A stretch of 64,000 bases of DNA from Fimbriimonadales bacterium (GTDB lineage Bacteria; Armatimonadota; Fimbriimonadia; Fimbriimonadales; JABRVX01), in the NCBI GenBank assembly GCA_045862955.1, contig BTVI01000015.1, positions 12,298 to 76,297 of the forward strand, in the 5' to 3' direction. The position numbers and the translations under genes are program-made. The notes below the pieces were generated by a model, which saw nothing but the letters and a program-made list of their open reading frames with translations, ran no database searches and had not been told where the DNA came from. Position 1 is the first letter of the stretch. Every line of letters begins with the position of its first letter. Positions 3,138 through 24,667 of this stretch are shown here, in pieces.

Positions 3138-4934
3138 CTACCGTTGCGCGCCCACTCCGCGTCGTGTGCGCAGGTAGTCTCGCAGCCCCACCCATGGCCT
3201 CGGGTCCAGCTCCTGCCGAATGCCGGGACAGATTCCGCAGCGCGAGCACACGCTAACATCGCACGGTGGGTCCTGTTGCCCTCGTAGCGCGCGCTGCCAT
3301 TCCTTCCACAGGTATGACTTGGGGAACCCTAGGTCTATAATGTCCCACGGAAACACCTCGTTGAGCTCTCGTGGTCGCTCTGCATAGAACGCAGGGTCCA
3401 CTCCCGAGCGCCGGAAGGCCTCTCTCGTCGACCCCTCCGCCCGATACAGCTCGTATACCAACGATGACACTCGCCTATCACCCCGCGCTAACGTGGCTTC
3501 CAACACCGCCATCCTCGGGCTCTCTCCTAACACGCGCACGTCCGGGTACTTGCGGAGGCGCGAGCGCACGTGCTGCACCTTCTGCTCGAGTACCTTCAGC
3601 GGGTCCTGGCCCGTCCACATGAAAGGTGCTCCGGGCTTGGGTACATGGCAACTGACGGAAAGCGAGATACGGTCCGGCCGGAATTCCGATCGTATCATCT
3701 CCGCTGTCTCGCATATTCCTTCCACATCCTCCATCGTTTCGGTCGGAAGCCCCACCATGTAATACAGCTTCACGCGACGGACGCCGTAACGCAACGCCGT
3801 CGCCACCGCGTCACGAATCTGATCCGCAGTCAGTCGCTTGTTGATGAACTCCCGGAGACGCTCCGATCCAGCCTCCGGCGCGATAGTGATAGACTGTTGT
3901 CCACCCAGAGCCATGTTCTGGACCAGCCTCGGAGTGATCGTATCAGCTCGCAAGGAGCTGACATTGTATGGGATGGAGCGTGACACCAAGTCGGAGGTTA
4001 CCTCCTCCGCGTCCGGGTGATCATACACGCTAGCACCAACGAGACCTACTCGTTCACCTACCACCGTGTTAGCATAGGTCTTCTGCACGGTGTCGCCGCT
4101 CTTGAACCGCGGAGGAAGAAAGGCATAGCCTACCACGCAGAATCGGCAATGCCTCCCGCACCCACGCATGATCTCTGTTAGCCGCATGTTGGCGAATTCG
4201 GTGTTGGGGGTGGTGATCACGCTCGACGTGTCGAGGCGTTCGAGGTCGTTCACCCACACACGTCGGACCGGTAGGGGCACACCGGCTCGCTTCGCTTCGA
4301 AGCCGGCCACCGTCCCGTCCGAATGATAGTGCACGTCATAGAAGGACGGCACATAGACGCCGGGGATGCCCGCCAGCGCCTCGAGTGTGGCCTGCCGATC
4401 CGTACCCGCTTCTGCAACCGCGTCGGCTATCCGAACCAGGCTTTCCTCCGCCTCCCCAATCAGCATGGCGTCCACGAACTCGGCAATCGGCTCGGGGTTC
4501 AGCACGGTTACGGGCCCACCCAGCAAAACGAGTGGGTGTCGTTCGTCCCTATCGGCAGCCCTCAGCGGCAGCCCCGCCAAGTCCAAAATATGCAGGATGT
4601 TCGGGTAATCGGGCTCGTAGCTGACCGAAAAGCCGAGAATGTCGAACTCGCGAACCGCCCGCTGTGTCTCTACAGTGAGAAGCGGCGTCGCCGTACGGCG
4701 GTACTCCTCGCAGTCCTCGGGGTCCGGGAGAAACACCCGCTCGCACGCTACGCCTGGCATCTCATTGAAAAGCCGGTACACCACCTGAAACCCCAGGTTG
4801 GACATTCCCAGGTAGTAGGTGTTAGGGAAGGCGAGCGCTACACGCAGCCGCGCGCCGTGAGGACGCAGAATCGTGCCGCGCTCGTCTCGGAGCAATCTCT
4901 GCAGTTTCTCGATCAGTTTACGGGACATGGACAT
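3138..4934 (-). CDS. B12-binding-type radical SAM protein (TIGR03960-like)
   Basis: CxxxCxxC (RGCGRHCRFC); N-terminal FPNTYYLGMSNLG; APEAGSERLR; C-terminal CxxxxCxxCxxC. Confidence 0.85.
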   Translation of the reverse strand: MSMSRKLIEKLQRLLRDERGTILRPHGARLRVALAFPNTYYLGMSNLGFQVVYRLFNEMPGVACERVFLPDPEDCEEYRRTATPLLTVETQRAVREFDILGFSVSYEPDYPNILHILDLAGLPLRAADRDERHPLVLLGGPVTVLNPEPIAEFVDAMLIGEAEESLVRIADAVAEAGTDRQATLEALAGIPGVYVPSFYDVHYHSDGTVAGFEAKRAGVPLPVRRVWVNDLERLDTSSVITTPNTEFANMRLTEIMRGCGRHCRFCVVGYAFLPPRFKSGDTVQKTYANTVVGERVGLVGASVYDHPDAEEVTSDLVSRSIPYNVSSLRADTITPRLVQNMALGGQQSITIAPEAGSERLREFINKRLTADQIRDAVATALRYGVRRVKLYYMVGLPTETMEDVEGICETAEMIRSEFRPDRISLSVSCHVPKPGAPFMWTGQDPLKVLEQKVQHVRSRLRKYPDVRVLGESPRMAVLEATLARGDRRVSSLVYELYRAEGSTREAFRRSGVDPAFYAERPRELNEVFPWDIIDLGFPKSYLWKEWQRALRGQQDPPCDVSVCSRCGICPGIRQELDPRPWVGLRDYLRTRRGVGAQR

Positions 4935-6661: not shown

Positions 6662-8176
6662 CTAAGCCGTCATCGTCTCGACACCGGTCATCAGCCGCAT
6701 TAGACCCTCTTCCGTCGCCTGCCCGGCTAGCACTTCGCCAACGAGTCGCCCATTGCGCAGAACCAGAATGCGGTCGCACAAGTTCAGCAACTCCGGCAGC
6801 TCGCTGGAGCTGACCACTACACCCCGCCCCTCCGATGCCATCGCCCGCACCAGCGAGTGGATCTCCGTCTTCGCACCTACGTCCACTCCGCGAGTGGGTT
6901 CGTCGAGAATCAGCACTCGGCACTGGGCCGCCAGCCACTTGGCGATCACCAGCTTCTGCTGATTGCCACCCGACAGGCCCGCCGCGACTGCATCCAACGA
7001 AGGCGCCTTCACCCTCATTGCAGCGAAGAACTTCGCTGCCAGCTCTCGCTCCGCCCCAGCGTTCACCCACCCGAAGCGCGAAAGCGAGTCCAGCACCGGC
7101 AGCGATATGTTATCCTTGGCGCTCATCCCCAGCACCAGCCCGTACCGCTTACGGTCTTCGGGCACCAGCCCGACTCCCATCCGCATCATCGTGGTGGGAC
7201 TGCGCTGCTCGACGATCTGGCCCGCCACGGCCACCTCGCCCTGGACGAAAGGATCGAGACCGAAGATCGCCAGTGCCACCTCGGTCCGACCAGAACCTAC
7301 CAGGCCCGCCAGCCCGACGATCTCCCCACCGCGGACGGCGAATCCGATATCGGTGAACTTCCGTGGGCTGCTCAGCCCAGCTACGCGCAACAACTCGGGC
7401 CCGAACGGCACGCCGCGTTCCGAAGGCCTACCTTCCACCACGCGACCGATCATCATCCGCACCAGGTCATCCCGTGTTAGGTCGGCAACAGGGCAAGTGC
7501 CTACTAGGTGCCCGTCTCGCAACACCGTCACCGTATCACACAGCTCGAACACCTCTTCCATGCGGTGCGACACATATATGCATGACACCCCCTGCGACCG
7601 CAACTCGCGGATCTGCTCGAACAGCACCTGTGTCTCGTAGAGCGATAGGCTGCTCGTTGGCTCGTCGAAGATCAACACCTTCGCGCCGCGCCCCACTGCG
7701 CCAGCTACCTGTGCCAGCTGCTGCTTGCTGATGGGTAGGTCGCCGACCAGGTGCCACGGGTCCACATCCAAGTTAATGCGCTGCAGCCATGCCTTGGTGC
7801 GCCGCTCCATCTCCACGTGATCCACGAAAAGTCCCCGTGCCGGCGGATCGTCCAGGCACAGGTTTTCGGCCACCGATAGGTTCTCGCAAAACGCCAGCTC
7901 CTGGTGGACGATACCGATGCCTGCCCGAATGGCATCCAACGGCCCCCCGAAACGCACCGGCTTGCCCTCTAGAAGGACTTGCCCAGCATCCGGTCTGATC
8001 AGACCCGCCAGCACCTTTCCCAGCGTGCTCTTGCCCGCTCCGTTCTCGCCTACCAACGCATGGCAAGAGGCACGTCGCACTCGCAGGGCGACATCGTCCA
8101 ATGCTAACACGCCAGGGAACCGCTTCGTGATCCCCTGCGCCTCGAGCACTATCTCTCCCGAAGAACTACTACTCAC
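6662..8176 (-). CDS. Sugar ABC transporter ATP-binding protein (RbsA-like)
   Basis: GENGAGKST, DEPTSSL, LSGGNQQK and DEPTRGVDVGAK; two ATPase halves. Confidence 0.92.
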   Translation of the reverse strand: MSSSSSGEIVLEAQGITKRFPGVLALDDVALRVRRASCHALVGENGAGKSTLGKVLAGLIRPDAGQVLLEGKPVRFGGPLDAIRAGIGIVHQELAFCENLSVAENLCLDDPPARGLFVDHVEMERRTKAWLQRINLDVDPWHLVGDLPISKQQLAQVAGAVGRGAKVLIFDEPTSSLSLYETQVLFEQIRELRSQGVSCIYVSHRMEEVFELCDTVTVLRDGHLVGTCPVADLTRDDLVRMMIGRVVEGRPSERGVPFGPELLRVAGLSSPRKFTDIGFAVRGGEIVGLAGLVGSGRTEVALAIFGLDPFVQGEVAVAGQIVEQRSPTTMMRMGVGLVPEDRKRYGLVLGMSAKDNISLPVLDSLSRFGWVNAGAERELAAKFFAAMRVKAPSLDAVAAGLSGGNQQKLVIAKWLAAQCRVLILDEPTRGVDVGAKTEIHSLVRAMASEGRGVVVSSSELPELLNLCDRILVLRNGRLVGEVLAGQATEEGLMRLMTGVETMTA

Positions 8177-9194
8177 CAGTGAGGTACTTCGGGTCGACGT
8201 CCGAAAAGCCCCATTGTTTGAGCTGCCTTGCCCACTCGGACAGGTTGTCTTTGGACACGCGCACCAGCTCCATCTTGTTGATCGGCGGAATGTCCTTCTT
8301 GTGGATTAGCTTGTCCACGATCATTTCCACGGACACCTTTCCCCACAGATAGGTGGGTTGGGCGAGCAGCACCGGTGCAATGCCCTTCTCGATGTATGGA
8401 AGTTGCGCAGGCAAGCAATCTACTGCCACCACCTTCACCTTCGAAGGGTCCAAGTCGGATAGCAGTGTCTTCGTGAAGAGCGGCCACCCTCCGATCATCG
8501 CCCAGGCCGTGATCTCCGGGTTGGCTTGCATCACCCGCAGAACCTCGGCAGCGGCATCCTGCGGTGTCTCGGCGTGGTGAAAGGTGCCGATGATCTTGAT
8601 GCCCCGATACTTCGCTGCTTCCTGCTTGGCCCCCTGGACGCGCTTCTGCAGGTTGGGGGCGTTCTGGTTTCCCGCGAGGATCGCAACGTTCGCCTTCCCG
8701 TTCGTCTGCGCCGCTAGCTCGGCCATCACCTTCCTGCCGGTCTCCACGTCGTCCACGCCGTAAAACGCAAAGCGCTTCGAGTCCGGTGCATCACTGTCGA
8801 AGGTCATAACAGGAATGCCAGCGTCCACAGCGTCGTTGATGGCGCCGGTCACCTTCCCGGCGTCGGAACAGGAGATGAGTATTACGTCGGCACCTTCGTT
8901 CACTGCCTGTTGAACGCGCTGCGCCTGAATCTGTCCGTCCTCGGTGGGTGGTGTTCGCCAATCAATCTCGATGTTGACGCCCGTCTCTTGCGATAGGCGT
9001 CTAGCAGCATCCTCCGCGCCGGTGCGTGCGGAGATGAAGACCGGGTTCGTCGAACTCTTCGCGATCATCACGATCTTCAGCGACTTGGGCTTTTGCGTGG
9101 TGCTCGCTTCCTTCTTTCCACATCCCGCGGCAAGCAGCGCGATGCCACCCAGCGCTGCTAGAGCTACTATGAACAGGCGTTCTTTCATTGCCAT
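8169..9194 (-). CDS. Sugar ABC transporter substrate-binding lipoprotein
   Basis: Lipobox LAAGC; periplasmic binding protein type 1 motifs (GIPVMTFDSDA); GGAGG RBS. Confidence 0.88.
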   Translation of the reverse strand: MAMKERLFIVALAALGGIALLAAGCGKKEASTTQKPKSLKIVMIAKSSTNPVFISARTGAEDAARRLSQETGVNIEIDWRTPPTEDGQIQAQRVQQAVNEGADVILISCSDAGKVTGAINDAVDAGIPVMTFDSDAPDSKRFAFYGVDDVETGRKVMAELAAQTNGKANVAILAGNQNAPNLQKRVQGAKQEAAKYRGIKIIGTFHHAETPQDAAAEVLRVMQANPEITAWAMIGGWPLFTKTLLSDLDPSKVKVVAVDCLPAQLPYIEKGIAPVLLAQPTYLWGKVSVEMIVDKLIHKKDIPPINKMELVRVSKDNLSEWARQLKQWGFSDVDPKYLTGE

Positions 9195-9203
9195 AACTAC
9201 CTC

Positions 9204-10235
9204 CTAACCCTTCGCCTGAAGCAATCGCTTCGACCCCAGACGCGCACTCGCACGATCCAGCACTACTGCGATAATGATCGCACAGCCGATGATAATCCAC
9301 TCGTACTTCTGGTCGAAATGCAGCGTGCGGATGGATTGCTGCATGAGGGCAATCAATAACGCACCGAGCATCGCGCTGATCGCGCTTCCCTTACCCCCCG
9401 CAAGGCTCGCACCGCCTACCACGGCAGATGCAATTACATACAACTCATATCCGGTCGCGTCGGCACTGGATGCTGCCCCGAAGTATCCCGCAGCGATGAA
9501 CGCCGCAATGCCGGCAGTCAGCCCGGAGATCGTGTACACCGCAATCAGTACCCGCTCGATGCGTACTCCGGAATACCGAGCCGCCTCGACGTTGCCACCC
9601 ACCGCGAACACCCTCCTGCCACTCACCGTCTTGGTAAGAAAGAGCCATCCACACACTGCCACTGCCAACATCGCTAACATCGGCACGGGATACAGCTGCT
9701 TGCCGAGCCCGAGGTTCGCCTTCGCCAGGTCTGTCAGCGAGCTGGGCACGAGGATGCTCTCTGCGCGGCTGGTAACGAACGCGATCCCGCGATACACCCA
9801 CATCGTCCCTAGGGTGATAATGAACGGGTGCACGCCGAGCGACGTAATCATCACGCCGTTGGCAAATCCACACATCGTGCCGAGCCCGCAGCACACCAAG
9901 ATGCCGACCCAGATAGCCGATCCACCCGTCAAACCCAAGTCCCTCAGCACCATCGCCGAAAGCACTCCGGCGAGCGCGTAGGTGGAACCGACGGACAAGT
10001 CGATCCCGGCGGTGATGATCACCATGGTTACACCCACCGCCATGATCGCGAAGAAGCTGGCGAAGGTGGCAACCTGCATCAGAGTCGCGGCGTTCAGGAA
10101 GTTGTTTACCTCCGCCCCGGTGGCCCGATTGGTGTGAGTACCCGCGAACACAGTGAGCACCACTCCGAGTGCCACGATCACCACCAGCAGTCCGAATTGC
10201 TGCGAGCCGACGAGTACCAAAAGGTTGCGCCGCAT
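9204..10235 (-). CDS. Sugar ABC transporter permease (RbsC-like)
   Basis: GIDLSVG, PFIITLG, AVGGN.EAARYSG and YELYVIASAVVGG; start placed at ATG 10235. Confidence 0.9.
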   Translation of the reverse strand: MRRNLLVLVGSQQFGLLVVIVALGVVLTVFAGTHTNRATGAEVNNFLNAATLMQVATFASFFAIMAVGVTMVIITAGIDLSVGSTYALAGVLSAMVLRDLGLTGGSAIWVGILVCCGLGTMCGFANGVMITSLGVHPFIITLGTMWVYRGIAFVTSRAESILVPSSLTDLAKANLGLGKQLYPVPMLAMLAVAVCGWLFLTKTVSGRRVFAVGGNVEAARYSGVRIERVLIAVYTISGLTAGIAAFIAAGYFGAASSADATGYELYVIASAVVGGASLAGGKGSAISAMLGALLIALMQQSIRTLHFDQKYEWIIIGCAIIIAVVLDRASARLGSKRLLQAKG

Positions 10236-10411
10236 CCATGCTCCGATTCCGCACCCGCTGTCCCGCCTCCTGCCCCGCCGGGTCGCCTGGCTGACTCCGC
10301 CTGAGGGCACCCCCATCTGGCAACACGCCCGCGCCAGAGCAGGGGACCAGGCCTGGTCGAGCCCCCTTCCCAGCAGCACACGGTGCCTCGTCACTAAGAT
10401 CTCCCTCCCCC

Positions 10412-10440
10412 TTGACACCGCGCAGCCAGTGTGATACGAT
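10412..10440 (+). promoter_or_regulatory. Sigma70 promoter of the cobalamin-riboswitch operon
   Basis: TTGACA-N17-TACGAT with TG extension. Confidence 0.75.
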
Positions 10441-10462
10441 AGACCCGACAAATAACACGCTG

Positions 10463-10556
10463 GGTTGCGTGGCCACGGGGAAGCCGGTGAGAATCCGGCG
10501 CAGTGCCGCTACGGTGTTGCGATGAACTCGCTAAGCCCGACCGCCACCACGCAGCC
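10463..10556 (+). promoter_or_regulatory. Cobalamin riboswitch
   Basis: GGGAAGCCGGTGAGAATCCGGCGCAGTGCCGCTACGGTG core and AAGCCCGACCGCC B12-box-like segment; P1 pairing GGTTGCGTGG/CCACGCAGCC. Confidence 0.88.
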
Positions 10557-10610
10557 GGTCACGGTAACCTCTTCGCGCTTGAGAGGGTGACTGCGCAGCA
10601 GTTCTAGCAG

Positions 10611-10645
10611 ACCCCGTCCCAAAGCGAGGAGCGGGGTTTTCGTTT
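10611..10645 (+). terminator. Riboswitch expression-platform terminator
   Basis: ACCCCG...CGGGGT stem followed by a U-rich tract, upstream of the start at 10691. Confidence 0.6.
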
Positions 10646-10690
10646 ACCCCGTTTCCCGAACCGGCGCCCGGCTCGATACAAAGGAGAGCA

Positions 10691-11638
10691 ATGGATCGAG
10701 CAGTGGCCATCACACTATGCGCAGCCGTCGCCGTTACGGCCAACGCCTTTACTCCTGCAACCGGCTATCGCACGGTTGACCTCGACCTATTCGGCTCAGC
10801 CATCGCCGTGTCGCCATCCGGCAAACTCGCAGTCGGTGAGGATGCCTTCGGTGGAGGCGCCCTAATACGGGTGTTCGACAGCGTCTTGCCCGGACGAAAC
10901 CTGCTCTACACGATCACCGCTCCGAGCGGCCACAACTGGCAGTTCTTGTCCGCGCTGACGTGGCAAGACGACGAAACCCTCATCATCGCCGAGAACGGCG
11001 ATATGGACACCGCCTATTCCGCGGTAGGACCCACCGTGACACCGCTTGCCCCCATCGGCTCCATTCCCAGCATCGCCGGGTTGACCCTCGGTTTCGGCGG
11101 CGATCTGTTCGCAACGGCTGCAACCGATCCAGGAACCGGAACGGTGTACCGACTTCACTCCGGTACCGTCACAGCGTTCGCCGGTTCCTTTGGTACCGGC
11201 TACCTCGGAGGCATCGCCTTCCTGGACGACGTCCTCTATGTTGCCGACACCAACGATCCCTTCTTCCTGGGCAACCCCGGGCAGGTGCATCGCTTCGCTT
11301 CGGACGGAAGCTATCTCGGAGCCATCTCCCTCGCCGATGGAGGCGGATCCGGGGTGGTAGACATCCTTTTCGACACCGAGGGAGACCTCATCGCAACGAC
11401 TGGCTCCACCCTCACCGTCAACAGTGTAACGCTCGGGACCTTCAGCGGGCCCTGGCCGTTCCCAACCTCTCTTGCCTACACGGGGTCCGGCTTCGAGCCG
11501 TTCTCCGGTACCGGGCTGCTGCTGGTAAACGGCACGTTCACGGAGATGGGTGGCATTTTCGGCATCACGCCCGTGCCCGAGCCGGGAGCCATCGCCCTGC
11601 TGCTGCCCGCGCTCGCACTCATCAGGAGGCGGAGGTGA
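10691..11638 (+). CDS. PEP-CTERM surface protein, putative beta-propeller
   Basis: Signal peptide; AAGGAG RBS; C-terminal VPEPGAIALLLPALALIRRRR. Confidence 0.85.
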   Translation: MDRAVAITLCAAVAVTANAFTPATGYRTVDLDLFGSAIAVSPSGKLAVGEDAFGGGALIRVFDSVLPGRNLLYTITAPSGHNWQFLSALTWQDDETLIIAENGDMDTAYSAVGPTVTPLAPIGSIPSIAGLTLGFGGDLFATAATDPGTGTVYRLHSGTVTAFAGSFGTGYLGGIAFLDDVLYVADTNDPFFLGNPGQVHRFASDGSYLGAISLADGGGSGVVDILFDTEGDLIATTGSTLTVNSVTLGTFSGPWPFPTSLAYTGSGFEPFSGTGLLLVNGTFTEMGGIFGITPVPEPGAIALLLPALALIRRRR

Positions 11639-12423
11639 TCCTCACCGCGCTCGCCATCCTGTATCAAGGCGTCTTTGGCCCGTCCGACTTCGCAACGAAG
11701 CTGTTCGACTACAACGGGGTGAACGGCGTGCCGGGATACAACGTGGATGCGACCAAAGTGCTGGGCTACCCCTCGCCTAACGCGACACCGTCGGTACCCG
11801 ACAACAGTCACCTCTTCTCATTCGGATGGGGAGGGTTCGTGACGGTCGGTTTCGACCGGCCAATCCGAAACGGCCCCGGACCGGACTTCATCGTCTTCGG
11901 CAACGCCTTCTATGCGGGCGGAGACCCGCTGTCGGTATGGCGCGAGCCGGGATTCGTCGAAGTCGGAGTAGACGTGGATGGTGACGGCGTGCCGAGCCAG
12001 CCAGACCGGTGGTACTTGCTCCGCGGATTTCCGGCCCCGCCCTTTCCCCTAGACCCGTACTTCTACGGTTGGTTCGAACCGGAACTCCCCTGGGCCTACG
12101 CAGACTGCACCCCGACGGACAATACGGGCAATCCCCTCCTCCCCGATAACCCTCTGTCGGTCGGAATCGACCCCGGCTCCGCGGGCGGGGATTCGATGGA
12201 CCTGGACTGGGCAGTGGATTGGACCACTGGCCTGCGCGTATGGCTGAAGGAGGCTCACTTCGTGCGCATCACGCACGCGCTGAACTCCTTCCACCCTGTT
12301 TTCGGGCCTTCGTCCACCGAGGTGGACGCGATCGCCATCGTGCACCCGGACGGCCCGCTCGCTGCCACGCCGGTACCCCGCAGTGAATCGAAGAACGAGG
12401 TGCCTCCGAGCGGACGTGGATAG
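11635..12423 (+). CDS. Cell-surface protein resembling the Bacteroides BtuH-type cobalamin-associated domain
   Basis: GTG overlaps upstream stop (GTGA) with GGAGG; FSFGWGGFVTVGFDRPIRNGPGPDFIVFGNAF...EPGFVEV...WYLL...GGD.MDLDWAVD...FVRI...STEVD pattern. Confidence 0.6.
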   Translation: MILTALAILYQGVFGPSDFATKLFDYNGVNGVPGYNVDATKVLGYPSPNATPSVPDNSHLFSFGWGGFVTVGFDRPIRNGPGPDFIVFGNAFYAGGDPLSVWREPGFVEVGVDVDGDGVPSQPDRWYLLRGFPAPPFPLDPYFYGWFEPELPWAYADCTPTDNTGNPLLPDNPLSVGIDPGSAGGDSMDLDWAVDWTTGLRVWLKEAHFVRITHALNSFHPVFGPSSTEVDAIAIVHPDGPLAATPVPRSESKNEVPPSGRG

Positions 12424-13195
12424 CAGAAGAGCCTTCACGCTAATCGAGCTGCTCGTGGTGATTGCGATCATCGCGGTCCTTGCCGGCATCCTCTTTCCGG
12501 TGTTCGCTTCTGCTCGAAAGCACAGCCACACTGCGAGATGCGCCGCCAACCTGCGGCAGCTCGTCCAGGCGAACCTCATGTATGCGGGAGATACCGGCAG
12601 GTACGTCCCCGCTGCACAGGACCTGTACGAGACCAATCGCCGACGGTGGTTCGGAGTGCGAGGCTCAGACGGGCGGTTCATCCCTCGGGATGGGCCGCTC
12701 GTCCCCTACCTCGAGGACGGCGGACTCCTCCGCCAGTGTCCGCTCTTCTCGACGAAGATTGGGTTCTCCCTCGGCGCGGGGGGCTACGTGTACAACCACA
12801 TCGCAGCCGGGTCCAACGTCTGGGACATGGGCTTCGTGCCCGAGGCCTACCACACTTCGCGAAGAGAAGGGAGCGTTGCTCGACCCGCCCAGGTGGCGAT
12901 GTTCGCGGACGGTGCACTCGATGTCGGCAGTCCCCGGGGTCTTGCCGAGTACACATTCCTCGAGCCGCCCGAAGAAGTGCTCCGACGGATGGGCAGCCCC
13001 TATTCGATGGACCCGTCGCTCCATTTCCGCCACTCCGGCCGGGTCCTGGTGGGTTACGCGGACGGCCACGTCGGCGCCGGCCGCCTAGCCCGAACCGTGG
13101 AGAGGAGCGGCGTGTACCCTCGGGCCAATCCCGCCGCGCATGGCCTCGGCTGGATAGCCCCCCTCGACGGCGAAACCCCCTACGATCCGCTGTAG
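12383..13195 (+). CDS. Prepilin-type N-terminal cleavage/methylation protein with H-X9-DG domain (DUF1559-like)
   Basis: AFTLIELLVVIAIIAVLAGILFPVF, CAANLRQL and FRHSGRVLVGYADGHV; true start may be GTG 12416. Confidence 0.88.
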   Translation: MNRRTRCLRADVDSRRAFTLIELLVVIAIIAVLAGILFPVFASARKHSHTARCAANLRQLVQANLMYAGDTGRYVPAAQDLYETNRRRWFGVRGSDGRFIPRDGPLVPYLEDGGLLRQCPLFSTKIGFSLGAGGYVYNHIAAGSNVWDMGFVPEAYHTSRREGSVARPAQVAMFADGALDVGSPRGLAEYTFLEPPEEVLRRMGSPYSMDPSLHFRHSGRVLVGYADGHVGAGRLARTVERSGVYPRANPAAHGLGWIAPLDGETPYDPL

Positions 13196-13427: not shown

Positions 13428-14546
13428 GTGTATCAACCGCCTCTACCAGCGGAATACGTCTCGCTATCGGAGTCCGAGACCCATGAGCGCATCCAGGCCG
13501 CACGGCAGGCCCTCGGCAGCCGCTTGGTCATCTTGGGTCATCACTACCAGCGCGACGACATCATACGATACGCCGATTACCGGGGAGACAGCTACAAGCT
13601 GTGCCGGGACGCCGCCGCTCGACCCGAAGCGGATTACATCGTGTTCTGCGGAGTGCACTTCATGGCAGAGAGTGCCGACATTCTGTCCGCAGACCACCAG
13701 ATCGTCATCTTGCCCAACCTTTCGGCAGGATGCAGCATGGCCGACATGGCCAACACCTTTCAGGTTCGGCAGGCATGGAGGCAGCTCGGCGAGGTCACGG
13801 ACATCGAGCGGGTGGTCCCGATCACGTACATGAACTCCGCCGCCGCCCTCAAGGCCTTCGTCGGTGAGCGCGGTGGCGCCGTGTGCACCAGCTCCAACGC
13901 CTCGAAGGTGCTGTCCTGGGCACTGGGGCGGGGCGACAAGGTGCTGTTCTTCCCGGATCAGCATCTCGGTCGCAACACCGCCGTGCGCATGGGTTTCGAC
14001 CTGGACCGCGACATGCTGGTGTGGGATCCCGATCTGCCTTTGGGAGGCAACACGCCCGAGCGCATCCGCGAAGCCACGTTCCTGCTGTGGAAAGGTCACT
14101 GCTCCGTGCACATGCGCTTCACGCTAGAGCAGGTCCAACTCGCACGCAAGGTCCACCCCGGTATCAACGTCGTCGTGCACCCCGAGTGCACTAAGGACGT
14201 GGTGGATGCGGCCGACTGCTTCGGCTCCACCGAGTTCATCATCAAGACCGTGTCGGCAGGCGCCCCGGGCTCCAAGTGGGCTATCGGCACGGAGATCAAC
14301 CTGGTCAAGCGGCTGGCAGATGAGAACCCCGACAAGCTGATCTTCTGCCTCGATCCCATCACCTGCCCCTGCAGCACCATGTACCGCATACACCCTTCGT
14401 TCCTCCTGTGGGTGCTGGAGAACCTGGCGGCCGGACGCGTCGTCAACCGCATCGAGGTCCCTCCGCAGACGAAGCGCCACGCGCTGCAAGCGCTCCAACG
14501 CATGGTGACCATCACCGAGCAGTCAGCCGCCGCCTCCGCTATCTGA
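13428..14546 (+). CDS. nadA: Quinolinate synthase
   Basis: GHHYQRDD, VFCGVHFMAE, AGCSMADM, CTSSNA, PDQHLGRN, HPEC and CPCSTMYRI. Confidence 0.96.
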   Translation: MYQPPLPAEYVSLSESETHERIQAARQALGSRLVILGHHYQRDDIIRYADYRGDSYKLCRDAAARPEADYIVFCGVHFMAESADILSADHQIVILPNLSAGCSMADMANTFQVRQAWRQLGEVTDIERVVPITYMNSAAALKAFVGERGGAVCTSSNASKVLSWALGRGDKVLFFPDQHLGRNTAVRMGFDLDRDMLVWDPDLPLGGNTPERIREATFLLWKGHCSVHMRFTLEQVQLARKVHPGINVVVHPECTKDVVDAADCFGSTEFIIKTVSAGAPGSKWAIGTEINLVKRLADENPDKLIFCLDPITCPCSTMYRIHPSFLLWVLENLAAGRVVNRIEVPPQTKRHALQALQRMVTITEQSAAASAI

Positions 14547-14719: not shown

Positions 14720-15409
14720 TTACTTGCGGCGGCGCAGAGCCAGAAGGCCCACGAGACCGGTTGCGATCGCAGCGATGCTGCCCGGCTCGGGGACGATCTT
14801 GATGTAGTTGTCCGTGATGTCCACGGAAGCGCCGACGCCGTCCAGAATGCGGGTCGAAAGGCCCGTACCGGTGTTGCGATTGTCGAATTTCCAATCGAGG
14901 ACCTGGCCGGGAAGCCCAGGGCCGCAGACGAAGTCGAACAGCATGACGTCCCAGTTCTTCGCCTTCGATGACTGGCCCGACACACCGATCAGCGAGTACA
15001 CGCCGCGGTTCGTGACGAACGGCTTGGTGCTGTCACCGGGGTCGACGGCCCAGTCGTACATCGGGCCATAGTCAGGCTGCCAGTGGATCTTGACCGGGAA
15101 CTGCGTGCCAGGAACGAGCTTGGAGTTGACCTCGGCGTCCCAAGTGTTGGCATCCGCGTCGGTCATGATCTGGTTGCCTTCGAGATCCAACGTGATCTGC
15201 ATCGTGCCCCACTGGAACGGCGGGTTAGTGTCCAGATCGTTGAAGTGGAACCAGATCTCGATTAGGTCGCCGGGGTTGGCCATAACCGCGCCCGCGTTGC
15301 TCATGCCGGTCGTAGCGTTCTTGAAGTAGAGCCTTGCCTCGTACGCTGCGAAGGAGCTGGTCGCCAGCGCCATCGCCAGTCCGAGGACTACCGTGTTTCG
15401 AATGCTCAT
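14720..15409 (-). CDS. PEP-CTERM surface protein (paralog 1)
   Basis: Signal peptide ending SSFA; C-terminal VPEPGSIAAIATGLVGLLALRRRK. Confidence 0.9.
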   Translation of the reverse strand: MSIRNTVVLGLAMALATSSFAAYEARLYFKNATTGMSNAGAVMANPGDLIEIWFHFNDLDTNPPFQWGTMQITLDLEGNQIMTDADANTWDAEVNSKLVPGTQFPVKIHWQPDYGPMYDWAVDPGDSTKPFVTNRGVYSLIGVSGQSSKAKNWDVMLFDFVCGPGLPGQVLDWKFDNRNTGTGLSTRILDGVGASVDITDNYIKIVPEPGSIAAIATGLVGLLALRRRK

Positions 15410-15844: not shown

Positions 15845-17060
15845 TGGGTTTCCGCCCTCGCGTGAATGACGCGGTGTGCTCGATGCCCCGGCCCGCTTCC
15901 GCCGGCCCAGATTGCCACGCAGAGAACGCAACGAGAGCCGCAGAGATCGCAGCCACCGAAAGGCGGCGTGAGGACAACGGTTCCCCCTGCAGCCCTGCGG
16001 AAGGGGGAACCTTAAGGAGGGGGTCCCCCTTGAGGATCTGCGGAAGGGGGAACCTTAACGAACGGTTCCCCCTGCAGCCCTGCGGAAGGGGGAACCTTAA
16101 GGAGGGGGTCCCCCTTGAGGATCTGCGGAAGGGGGAAACTTAACGAACGGTTCCCCCTGCAGCCCTGCGGAAGGGGGAACCTTAAGGAGGGGGTCCCTTC
16201 CCCCGGCCCGCGTCCGCCGGCCCAGCACCTACCGAAGGCTTGCCTCGCCCCCAAGGACCGCGCCGGGGCAACTGCGGCGCTTGCGCCGTCCTGGCGATCC
16301 TTTGGCCGGCCGAGCAGTGCGGCTCTGGCTCTCGTGGCAAGAACCCCCTCCCCAGCTTCGCAGGCCCTCCCCCTTCCGCAAGGCCTCCAGGGGGAGGGGC
16401 TATTCTCTATGCCCCGACCCGCCTCTCCAGATTGCCGCGCAGAGAACGCAACGAGAGCCGCAGAGATCGCAGCCACCGAAAGGCGGCGTGAGGACAACGG
16501 TTCCCCCTGCAGCCCTGCGGAAGGGGGAACCTTAAGGAGGGGTTCCCCCTGCAGCCCTGCGGAAGGGGGAACCTTAACGAACGGTTCCCCCTGCAGCCCT
16601 GCGGAAGGGGGAACCTTAAGGAGGGGGTCCCTTCCCCCGGCCCGCTTCCGCCGACCAGCAACTGCCGCCGGCATGCCTCGACCCCAAGGACCGCGCCGGG
16701 GCAACTGCGGCGCTTGCGCCGTCCTGGCGATCCTTTGGCCGGCCGAGCAGTGCGGCTCCGGCTCTCGTGGCAAGAACCCCCTCCCCAGCTTCGCAGCCCC
16801 TCCCCCTTCCGCAGAGCCTCCAGGGGGAGGGGCTATTCTCTATGCCCGACCCGCCTCTCCAGATTGCCGCGCAGAGAACGCAACGAGAGCCGCAGAGATC
16901 GCAGTCACCGAAAGGCGGCGTGAGGACAACGGTTCCCCCTGCAGCCCTGCGGAAGGGGGAACCTTAAGGAGGGGGTCCCTTCCCCCGGCCCGCGTCCGCC
17001 GGCCCAGCACGAACCGAAGGCTTGCCTCGCCCCCAAGGACCGCGCCGGGGCCTCGCCCCC
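15845..17060. repeat. Mosaic REP-like palindromic repeat array
   Basis: About 9 copies of GGTTCCCCCTGCAGCCCTGCGGAAGGGGGAACC or variants (42-43 bp local spacing) inside three larger repeated blocks; GTCATTCACGCGAGGGCGGAAACCC REP-like unit (minus strand) at the left edge. Confidence 0.85.
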
Positions 17061-17278: not shown

Positions 17279-17989
17279 CTACTTCCGGCGGCGCAGGGCG
17301 AGAAGCCCGACCAGGCCAGTGGCAATCGCAGCGAAGGTGGACGGCTCGGGGACGATCTTGATGTAGTTATCGGTGATCTTAACCGAGGCGCCCTGATAGT
17401 CGAGGATTCGAGTCGACAGGCCGGTACCGGTGAGCCGGTTCTCGAACGCCCAGTGGAGCTCCTCGTTCGCGACGGCGCCGCCTGCCACGGTAAACGTGAA
17501 GAGCGTCTTGCTGAAGTTCCACGAAGGCGTCTTGTTGCCAGCGACACCGATCAGCGCATAGAGGCCCTTCGTCGCGACCTTCGGATACGTGTTATCGCTC
17601 GGGTCCACGGCGTTGTCGTACATGTCGCCGTAGTCCGGCTGCCAGAACACCTTAATCGGGAAGTTCGTCGGCGGAGTCAGAACGGCGCCGATCTGGGTAG
17701 CCCAGGTGTTTGCGTCGGCGTCGGTCATGATGGTCTTGCCGTCCAGAATGATGGTCGCCTGGAAGGTTCCCCACTTCTCCGTGTTGCCGGTCGTGTCATC
17801 CGCGAGGAAGAAATACTTGATGGCGATCTGGTCGCCGGGGGCAGCCAACAACGCACCAGCGTTGCTCGTACCCTTGGTAACGTTCTCGAACCACAGGCGA
17901 ACCTGATAGCCTGCAAAGCTCGGGGCGGTCAGTAGCGCGGCGAGGGCGCCGGCAACCACGACGTTTCGGATCTTCATGTGTCGGTCCAC
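17279..17989 (-). CDS. PEP-CTERM surface protein (paralog 2)
   Basis: Shares WQPDYG, TGTGLSTRILD and ITDNYIKIVPEP with 14720-15409; signal peptide; start may be ATG 17977. Confidence 0.9.
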   Translation of the reverse strand: MDRHMKIRNVVVAGALAALLTAPSFAGYQVRLWFENVTKGTSNAGALLAAPGDQIAIKYFFLADDTTGNTEKWGTFQATIILDGKTIMTDADANTWATQIGAVLTPPTNFPIKVFWQPDYGDMYDNAVDPSDNTYPKVATKGLYALIGVAGNKTPSWNFSKTLFTFTVAGGAVANEELHWAFENRLTGTGLSTRILDYQGASVKITDNYIKIVPEPSTFAAIATGLVGLLALRRRK

Positions 17990-24575: not shown

Positions 24576-24667
24576 GGAGAGGTGGCTGAGTGGTCGAAAG
24601 CGCCCGCCTGCTAAGTGGGTAACGGGGGAAACCTTGTTCCCGGGTTCGAATCCCGGCCTCTCCGCCA
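24576..24667 (+). tRNA. tRNA-Ser(GCT)
   Basis: GGAGAGG/CCTCTCC acceptor stem, G discriminator plus encoded CCA, anticodon loop CT-GCT-AA, long variable arm, GGTTCGAATCC T-arm; TATAAT upstream. Confidence 0.96.

Follow-up and report, generated by a model that had tools for sequence, protein, structure and literature searches.

A 64,000-nucleotide stretch of DNA from a Fimbriimonadales bacterium (contig BTVI01000015.1), here called the window, contains an operon that is very probably a module for acquiring vitamin B12 (cobalamin). A cobalamin riboswitch precedes three overlapping genes. They encode a PEP-CTERM beta-propeller (protein 1), a BtuH-type domain (protein 2) and a prepilin-type H-X9-DG protein (protein 3, the pilin). 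The pilin stands where btuB normally stands and is the constant gene of the system. Its riboswitch link in several phyla supports a dedicated pilin subfamily tied to B12. An earlier note on this DNA had proposed that B12 is captured by surface proteins and handed to a pseudopilin without BtuB. Our analysis followed up that proposal.

The pilin clade and its riboswitch

Protein 3 carries both FTLIELL and H-X9-DG, as the earlier note had read it. Its mature N-terminus is the F at 12434, and H-X9-DG lies at 13031-13066 (H217...D227-G228-H229). The N-terminal cleavage/methylation models PF07963 (34 bits, cut-off 21.2) and TIGR02532 (30.3 bits, cut-off 16.3) both scored above cut-off. TIGR04294 for H-X9-DG (14.4, cut-off 19) and PF07596 (13.4, cut-off 23.3) scored below it; the motif itself is plain. 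The protein probably starts at 12416, residue 12 of the longest open reading frame (ORF), as in the Atlas. Its Atlas matches were pilin-like or unnamed clusters only, and PDB sequence matches spanned just the N-terminal helix.

The genome holds 50 ORFs with a prepilin motif, and the closest paralogue matched protein 3 at just E 7e-18. With a profile built from 49 cassette pilins, 22 of 31 genomes showed a single strong copy each. A tree of 126 sequences placed the 62 core pilins in one clade (support 0.98) that included none of the 43 paralogues. When second-tier pilins were added, the paralogues still fell outside, with weak support (0.27). The clade is partly built in because its members were chosen by profile score; the riboswitch link is not. 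R88, W89, R93, F99, G133-G134, Y190, F192 and H214-F215 are invariant in the clade, and the cleavage/methylation motif with E+5 is retained throughout. A pilin-family profile reached 360,590 cluster representatives at E<=0.001, chiefly through the shared pilin helix. Nine of the best 150 representatives (P0288, P0163, P0181, P0159, P0272, P0226, P0212, P0200 and P0190) and locus L054 (1325-4129) have a BtuH-like domain in frame ahead of the pilin, often joined to it by a PEP-CTERM-like helix and a basic linker. As far as sequence can tell, this topology would permit a polyprotein that both exosortase and prepilin peptidase cleave.

We then viewed conservation from BtuH. The genome collection yielded 338 BtuH-like loci, of which the best 80 were used. 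A pilin lay directly 3' of BtuH in 61 of these 80, mainly in Phycisphaerae and other Planctomycetota, and also in Hydrogenedentota, Lentisphaeria and Armatimonadota. With our own profile (at least 14 bits; shuffled-sequence maximum 12.6 bits), a riboswitch was found 5' of BtuH in 69 loci. Rfam found it in 15 of the 18 loci given to it. Six of the 11 riboswitch-negative loci begin within ~300 bases of a contig end. The synteny of riboswitch, BtuH and pilin is conserved across phyla, in support of the earlier note. Elsewhere, BtuH precedes a TonB receptor and a YncE propeller at a spirochaete locus and is accompanied by DUF4465 at one from Omnitrophota. Six planctomycete loci (L059, L063, L065, L087, L097 and L103) contain three more prepilin-type genes at ~900-2900 on the minus strand, divergent and ~3 kb 5' of the riboswitch.

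Some TonB receptor was present in 17 of the 61 pilin-adjacent genomes, whose completeness was not given. None of the 20 TonB receptor loci checked had a cobalamin riboswitch. RF00174 was run on 20 cassette genomes, 16 of which have a receptor; it matched the cassette in 19, and in 17 this was its sole match. It matched none of the receptors listed for these genomes, with 76 candidates scored per genome.

The same link was seen when 80 metagenome loci were fetched by the pilin alone. A riboswitch was present in 33 of the 35 loci with at least 3.5 kb upstream (44 of 80 overall). BtuH-like genes were found in 59 of the 80, many with weak scores, and DUF4465 in 46; a search with one query found no TonB receptor in any of them. 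The pilin profile matched 164 of 201 Armatimonadota genomes at E<=1e-25, 121 at 1e-35 and 25 at <=1e-67. We examined 20 of the 25 top-tier loci and 20 second-tier loci chosen across families. The riboswitch was found at 18 and 17 of them, respectively, mostly 200-550 bases 5' of the pilin, and Rfam upheld 19 of 20 profile-positive loci. Downstream, 11 of 20 extended loci ran into BtuF-like, FecCD/ATP-binding cassette (ABC) or CobU/CobT/CobS genes (selected ORFs scanned). The earlier note had surface proteins capture B12 and hand it to the pilin. Across these loci the emphasis moves to the pilin as the fixed component, and the surface proteins turned out to be interchangeable or absent.

Close relatives of the HR15 type have their B12-clade pilin outside the cassette and next to rho. 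At five such loci (L155, L159, L163, L164 and L167) its other neighbour is a PQQ/BamB-like propeller gene, and there is no riboswitch.

The operon and its host

The features of the operon are collected in the table.

Table. Features of the operon, in window positions
Feature	Position	Strand	Detail
Sigma-70-type promoter-like site, extended -10	10412..10440	+	TTGACA-17-TACGAT, 10/12 consensus matches
Cobalamin riboswitch aptamer, adenosylcobalamin (AdoCbl) class, with P13 hairpin	10451..10596	+	RF01482 match
Predicted antiterminator	10569..10631	+	CUCUUCGC (10569-10576, 5' strand of P13) : GCGAGGAG (10624-10631), 8 bp
Predicted intrinsic terminator	10610..10645	+	bulged GC stem 10610-10638, then U tract UUUUCGUUU
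Protein 1: signal peptide, beta-propeller, C-terminal PEP-CTERM signal, 315 amino acids	10691..11638	+	sequence and predicted model
Protein 2: stand-alone BtuH-type domain, 262 amino acids	11635..12423	+	matches 8BLW chain B, 7BIZ
Protein 3: prepilin-type H-X9-DG protein, B12-linked clade	12416..13195	+	longest ORF from 12383

The promoter, cobalamin riboswitch and terminator described in the earlier note were all recovered. The promoter scan found 1 site against 0.7 expected by chance, so the position of the site weighs more than its score. A TG-n-TATGAT -10 element also lies 5' of the riboswitch in the leader sequences of two relatives. In an E-value scan, the AdoCbl model RF01482 matched with 47.6 bits and E 6.5e-8, and the whole model was covered (positions 1-149). 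A gathering-level Rfam scan of the entire window gave no riboswitch match, as the scores fell under gathering (47.6 versus 50 for RF01482, a narrow miss; 26.3 versus 31.5 for RF00174). Orthologous leaders were above gathering at 7 of 15 relatives' loci. No second cobalamin riboswitch was found in the genome.

The terminator region 10600-10648 is predicted to fold at -17.1 kcal/mol. The consensus terminator scan detected none in the leader because the stem is bulged. The antiterminator fold (-78.7 kcal/mol) and P13 plus terminator (-76.3 kcal/mol) are predicted to be mutually exclusive and are 2.4 kcal/mol apart. RNA contigs from one study lie over the leader (10460-10672 and 10458-10662) and over small parts of the genes. 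They show neither ends nor levels and were therefore not used as evidence.

The genes are coupled as described earlier, by a GTGA overlap between genes 1 and 2 and then by overlapping ORFs. The motifs named for them, FGWGGFVTVGFD, DFIVFGNAF, EPG, FTLIELL and H217-X9-DG, were all found in the translations. The operon has no TonB-dependent receptor or ABC component, again as claimed; no transporter gene lies within it and the next gene is nadA at 13428. A long ORF at 10960-12423 was rejected as a gene: it is the BtuH frame open upstream, and a start at 11635 is favoured by its ribosome-binding site and by agreement with relatives.

For protein 2, the BtuH-like assignment held by sequence, profile and fold. 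In the PDB, sequence and fold searches alike gave significant matches to 8BLW chain B and 7BIZ only. Against BtuH2 and the BtuG1 C-terminal domain, phmmer gave E 4.5e-11 and 2.9e-8, and the family profile gave E 1.6e-35 and 9.7e-23. Foldseek of the predicted model gave E 5.9e-13, with matches at E<0.001 limited to chains of BtuG1 and BtuH2. According to the accessible parts of PMC8941943 and PMC13616437, a two-metal site of BtuH2 (N399, E406, D522, S582, E584) binds the nucleotide-loop phosphate, and Q333, H476, Y510, W511 and W577 contact the corrin amides and ribose. In the profile alignment, N399, E406, S582 and E584 correspond to N90, E104, S227 and E229 of protein 2, and their equivalents are retained in 57, 54, 52 and 51 of 57 homologues. 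F401 corresponds to F92 and is retained in 46 of the 57. D522 probably corresponds to D157, where the alignment is ambiguous. No lipoprotein signal was found in protein 2, as its N-terminus has no cysteine, and it differs from relatives that carry dockerin-like or PEP-CTERM tails. A complex prediction for the BtuH domain with the pilin domain scored 0.01 and weighs neither way.

Protein 1 ends in VPEP, a hydrophobic helix and an RRRR tail. The PEP-CTERM model PF07589 scored 13.7 bits (cut-off 20.7), although the motif itself is plain, and it is listed for 8 of 22 homologue rows. The predicted structure is a propeller with ~25 strands (predicted local distance difference test score, pLDDT, 88.7). 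An exosortase is encoded in the genome, in line with the PEP-CTERM anchoring predicted for the propeller. The comparison with BtuG did not find support: searches with protein 1 and two family profiles found no BtuG chain at E<=1, and the best structural matches were six-bladed NHL domains (Z 25.6, root-mean-square deviation 2.9, 246 aligned). Two fold searches with the propeller model had no BtuG among the rows listed, although kinship may still exist. The modelled propeller probably has six blades, whereas that of BtuG is given as seven-bladed in the accessible part of PMC13616437. The gene that comes first in the Phycisphaerae cassettes encodes a homologue of protein 1 (97.8%, E 7.6e-13). 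We treat protein 1 as an accessory protein of the system.

The host genome is 97.55% complete, and the names given to its nearest homologues point to Armatimonadota, class Fimbriimonadia. It encodes MetH (above cut-off), methylmalonyl-CoA mutase and a corrinoid methyltransferase pair; the genome search found neither MetE nor CobS. It also found no TonB-dependent barrel and no BtuB match, in keeping with the candidate non-BtuB system of the earlier note. One BtuF-like binding protein and one FecCD permease are encoded elsewhere, without a riboswitch. Three secretins, PilB, PilC, PilM homologues and five PilT (above cut-off) are present. At L115:2566-4675, pilC- and pilB-like genes are immediately followed, in the same orientation, by genes for an MtaB-like methyltransferase and a corrinoid protein.

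Other features of the window were noted. Sugar-type ABC genes (permease, binding protein and ATPase, judged from translations) lie at 6662-10240 on the minus strand, divergent from the operon. A 598-amino-acid ORF at 3138-4934 (minus strand), 5.5 kb from the riboswitch, has a radical-SAM CxxxCxxC motif and a weak, below cut-off B12-binding match (E 1.8e-5). Nested imperfect palindromic repeats at 15893-17051, with ~42-nucleotide units in ~430-nucleotide blocks, resemble repetitive extragenic palindromic (REP) or bacterial interspersed mosaic elements (BIME). They lie between two paralogous PEP-CTERM genes on the minus strand (14720-15409 and 17279-17989). A tRNA with a long variable arm is found at 24576-24664.

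Possible action of the pilin

Judging from the sequences, the most likely mechanism is B12 import through a pilus or pseudopilus and a secretin, with a dedicated pilin in place of BtuB; we give it about an even chance. When B12 is scarce, the antiterminator would form and the genes would be transcribed; bound B12 would favour P13 and the terminator. The exosortase-anchored propeller and the BtuH domain would be optional helpers that collect cobamides in the envelope or outside it. The later steps are the least secure. The pilin may be matured by prepilin peptidase and become a minor subunit of a type IV pilus or type II pseudopilus. With its clade-specific globular domain, the pilin might bind B12 and bring the vitamin via the secretin into the periplasm; from there a BtuF/BtuCD-type ABC importer, with genes outside the operon, could take over.

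Replacement of BtuB was examined in the same 201 Armatimonadota genomes. TIGR01779 matched 65 of them, none above cut-off. Of 19 BtuB leaders that were positive with Rfam, our first riboswitch profile missed 13. Counts made with that profile are therefore minimum values, and a second profile was used for the BtuB comparison. Of the 36 best TIGR01779 matches, 29 were riboswitch-led. The pilin was found at E<=1e-35 in 5 of these 29 genomes (none top-tier) versus 116 of the other 172. From these counts, pilin and BtuB are anticorrelated but not exclusive. Strict mutual exclusion, or strict replacement of BtuB by the pilin, was rejected because five genomes have both. The earlier claim of a non-BtuB system is too strong if it means strict replacement.

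We also rejected BtuB as the alternative in close relatives whose pilin is unlinked; their receptor lies in a response regulator-receptor-binding protein-kinase cassette without a riboswitch. Three Armatimonadota loci (L123, L126 and L131) share a conserved TonB-dependent receptor, an ABC-type binding protein and a dCache histidine kinase, also without a riboswitch. A response regulator lies upstream in L123 and L126, and the cassette looks like a signalling unit. A ZMP/ZTP riboswitch was found at L132:6807-6891, near a TonB-dependent receptor locus in an Armatimonadota genome.

Several observations weigh against import by a pilin in place of BtuB. The pilin-BtuB count includes non-independent kin, leaves 29 weaker TIGR01779 matches outside the check and rests on 12 pilin candidates scored per genome. 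The five genomes with both a riboswitch-led pilin and a riboswitch-led BtuB belong to one family. No tie was seen between the operon pilin and any of the three secretin systems. Among loci with the pilin apart from BtuH, 12 of 13 show no riboswitch, two of them ending at or near a contig edge. The propeller was found in just 1 of the 80 metagenome pilin loci. Protein 2 has a weak, unusually short signal peptide (hydrophobic N-terminus of 10 residues) and no C-terminal anchor. Its alignment to BtuH2 has long indels in the corrin-side region, where Q333, H476, W511 and W577 are not retained and Y510 is ambiguous. With the metal/phosphate ligands kept and these corrin contacts unmatched in the alignment, B12 binding by protein 2 is no more than plausible.

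Some of the same data would fit a B12 binder tethered in the inner membrane, which would act as a periplasmic sink or shuttle to BtuF while B12 crosses the outer layer passively, without filament motion. Behind the riboswitch, the pilin is often the sole gene or the first ahead of btuF/btuCD. No assembly genes were linked at the loci scanned, the pilin coexists with BtuB in five genomes, and the Pfam name of the wider family is SBP_bac_10. We consider a tethered binder unlikely, though second in rank after import through a secretin. A pilin cleavage/methylation motif with E+5 goes with filament assembly, and its retention throughout the clade therefore suggests such assembly. B12 generally exceeds the size limit of ordinary porins, and the pilin is depleted where BtuB is present.

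It is improbable that the pilin is a type II secretion adaptor which exports the co-encoded B12 catchers and does not contact B12 itself. Many riboswitch-led pilins have no secreted operon partner and stand ahead of btuF, btuCD or cobUTS, and one conserved pilin is paired with unrelated cargo folds (propeller, BtuH and DUF4465). This export role would explain the tight coupling and in-frame fusion with BtuH-type cargo, and similar pseudopilins are read as export aids in the accessible part of PMC13274419. B12 starvation could also induce an adhesin or sensor pilus that holds cells to B12-producing neighbours or particles, with uptake by another route. The Akkermansiaceae pilus-like MUL2 proteins are described as attachment factors linked to glycan uptake (PMC13174399, accessible part), and some pilin orthologues have lost the riboswitch. 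However, a transport step agrees better with the head position in btuFCD/cobUTS operons and with the rarity of the pilin in BtuB genomes, and we hold an adhesin pilus to be very improbable.

Import by the pilin leads to a wider proposal, which we make only tentatively. TonB-independent B12 import through a secretin, by a type IV pilus or pseudopilus with a dedicated H-X9-DG pilin as its binding tip, may occur across Armatimonadota, Planctomycetota and their neighbours, and the dozens of H-X9-DG paralogues in each genome may be a library of substrate-specific uptake adaptors. The uptake-adaptor role of H-X9-DG proteins in general would be an extrapolation from one clade.

Relation to known systems

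The system is real, conserved and probably undescribed in print. In the literature covered, which left out most subscription journals and supplements, we found no paper that links H-X9-DG/DUF1559 pilins to B12 or assigns a function to this family. The accessible part of PMC13398666 reports that DUF4465 binds B12 and makes no mention of pilins or PEP-CTERM; that of PMC13274419 describes over-expression on alginate of a pseudopilin that has 67 paralogues. Binders of the accessory kinds are known from other settings. No counterpart is known for a pilin in the position of the receptor, and how it would act is inferred. For one clade of a very large family there is now a candidate ligand that is cheap and defined, and the riboswitch would serve as a built-in reporter; binding and knockout tests are therefore direct. 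The system may also answer how B12 is supplied in diderm phyla with few or no TonB-dependent receptors.

Among the closest known systems is the Btu relay of Bacteroides thetaiotaomicron (BtuJ/DUF4465, BtuH, BtuG, BtuB and BtuFCD), as described in the accessible parts of PMC8941943 and PMC13616437. Both have a cobalamin riboswitch, a BtuH-type domain and an adjoining propeller, and DUF4465 occurs in 46 of 80 related pilin loci. Unlike the relay, the operon has no BtuB or TonB receptor, and its constant gene is a prepilin. PEP-CTERM or dockerin-like tails replace the lipoprotein anchors, and the propeller has no detectable BtuG sequence likeness.

In the E. coli/Salmonella-type layout, btuB-btuFCD-cobUTS operons are found. 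The Armatimonadota loci resemble them in having a riboswitch-led first gene followed by BtuF, BtuCD or CobU/T/S (11 of 20 loci). However, the first gene here encodes a prepilin of 250-290 amino acids, not a beta-barrel of 600. With other DUF1559 (PF07596)/H-X9-DG (TIGR04294) proteins, which have dozens of paralogues per genome, the pilin shares the N-terminal methylation helix and the C-terminal H-X9-DG-H. In contrast to them, the B12 clade is single-copy and conserved at 35-50% identity across phyla, has its own invariant residues and is tied to one nutrient.

Competence pili use type IV filament parts in the uptake of DNA, a polymer. The Akkermansia MUL2 pilus-like locus, which the accessible part of PMC13174399 links to glycan attachment and uptake, is likewise a case of type IV filament parts linked to the uptake of an external substrate. 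The substrate there is a polymer (mucin or fucoidan), whereas the candidate substrate here is a small cofactor under riboswitch control.

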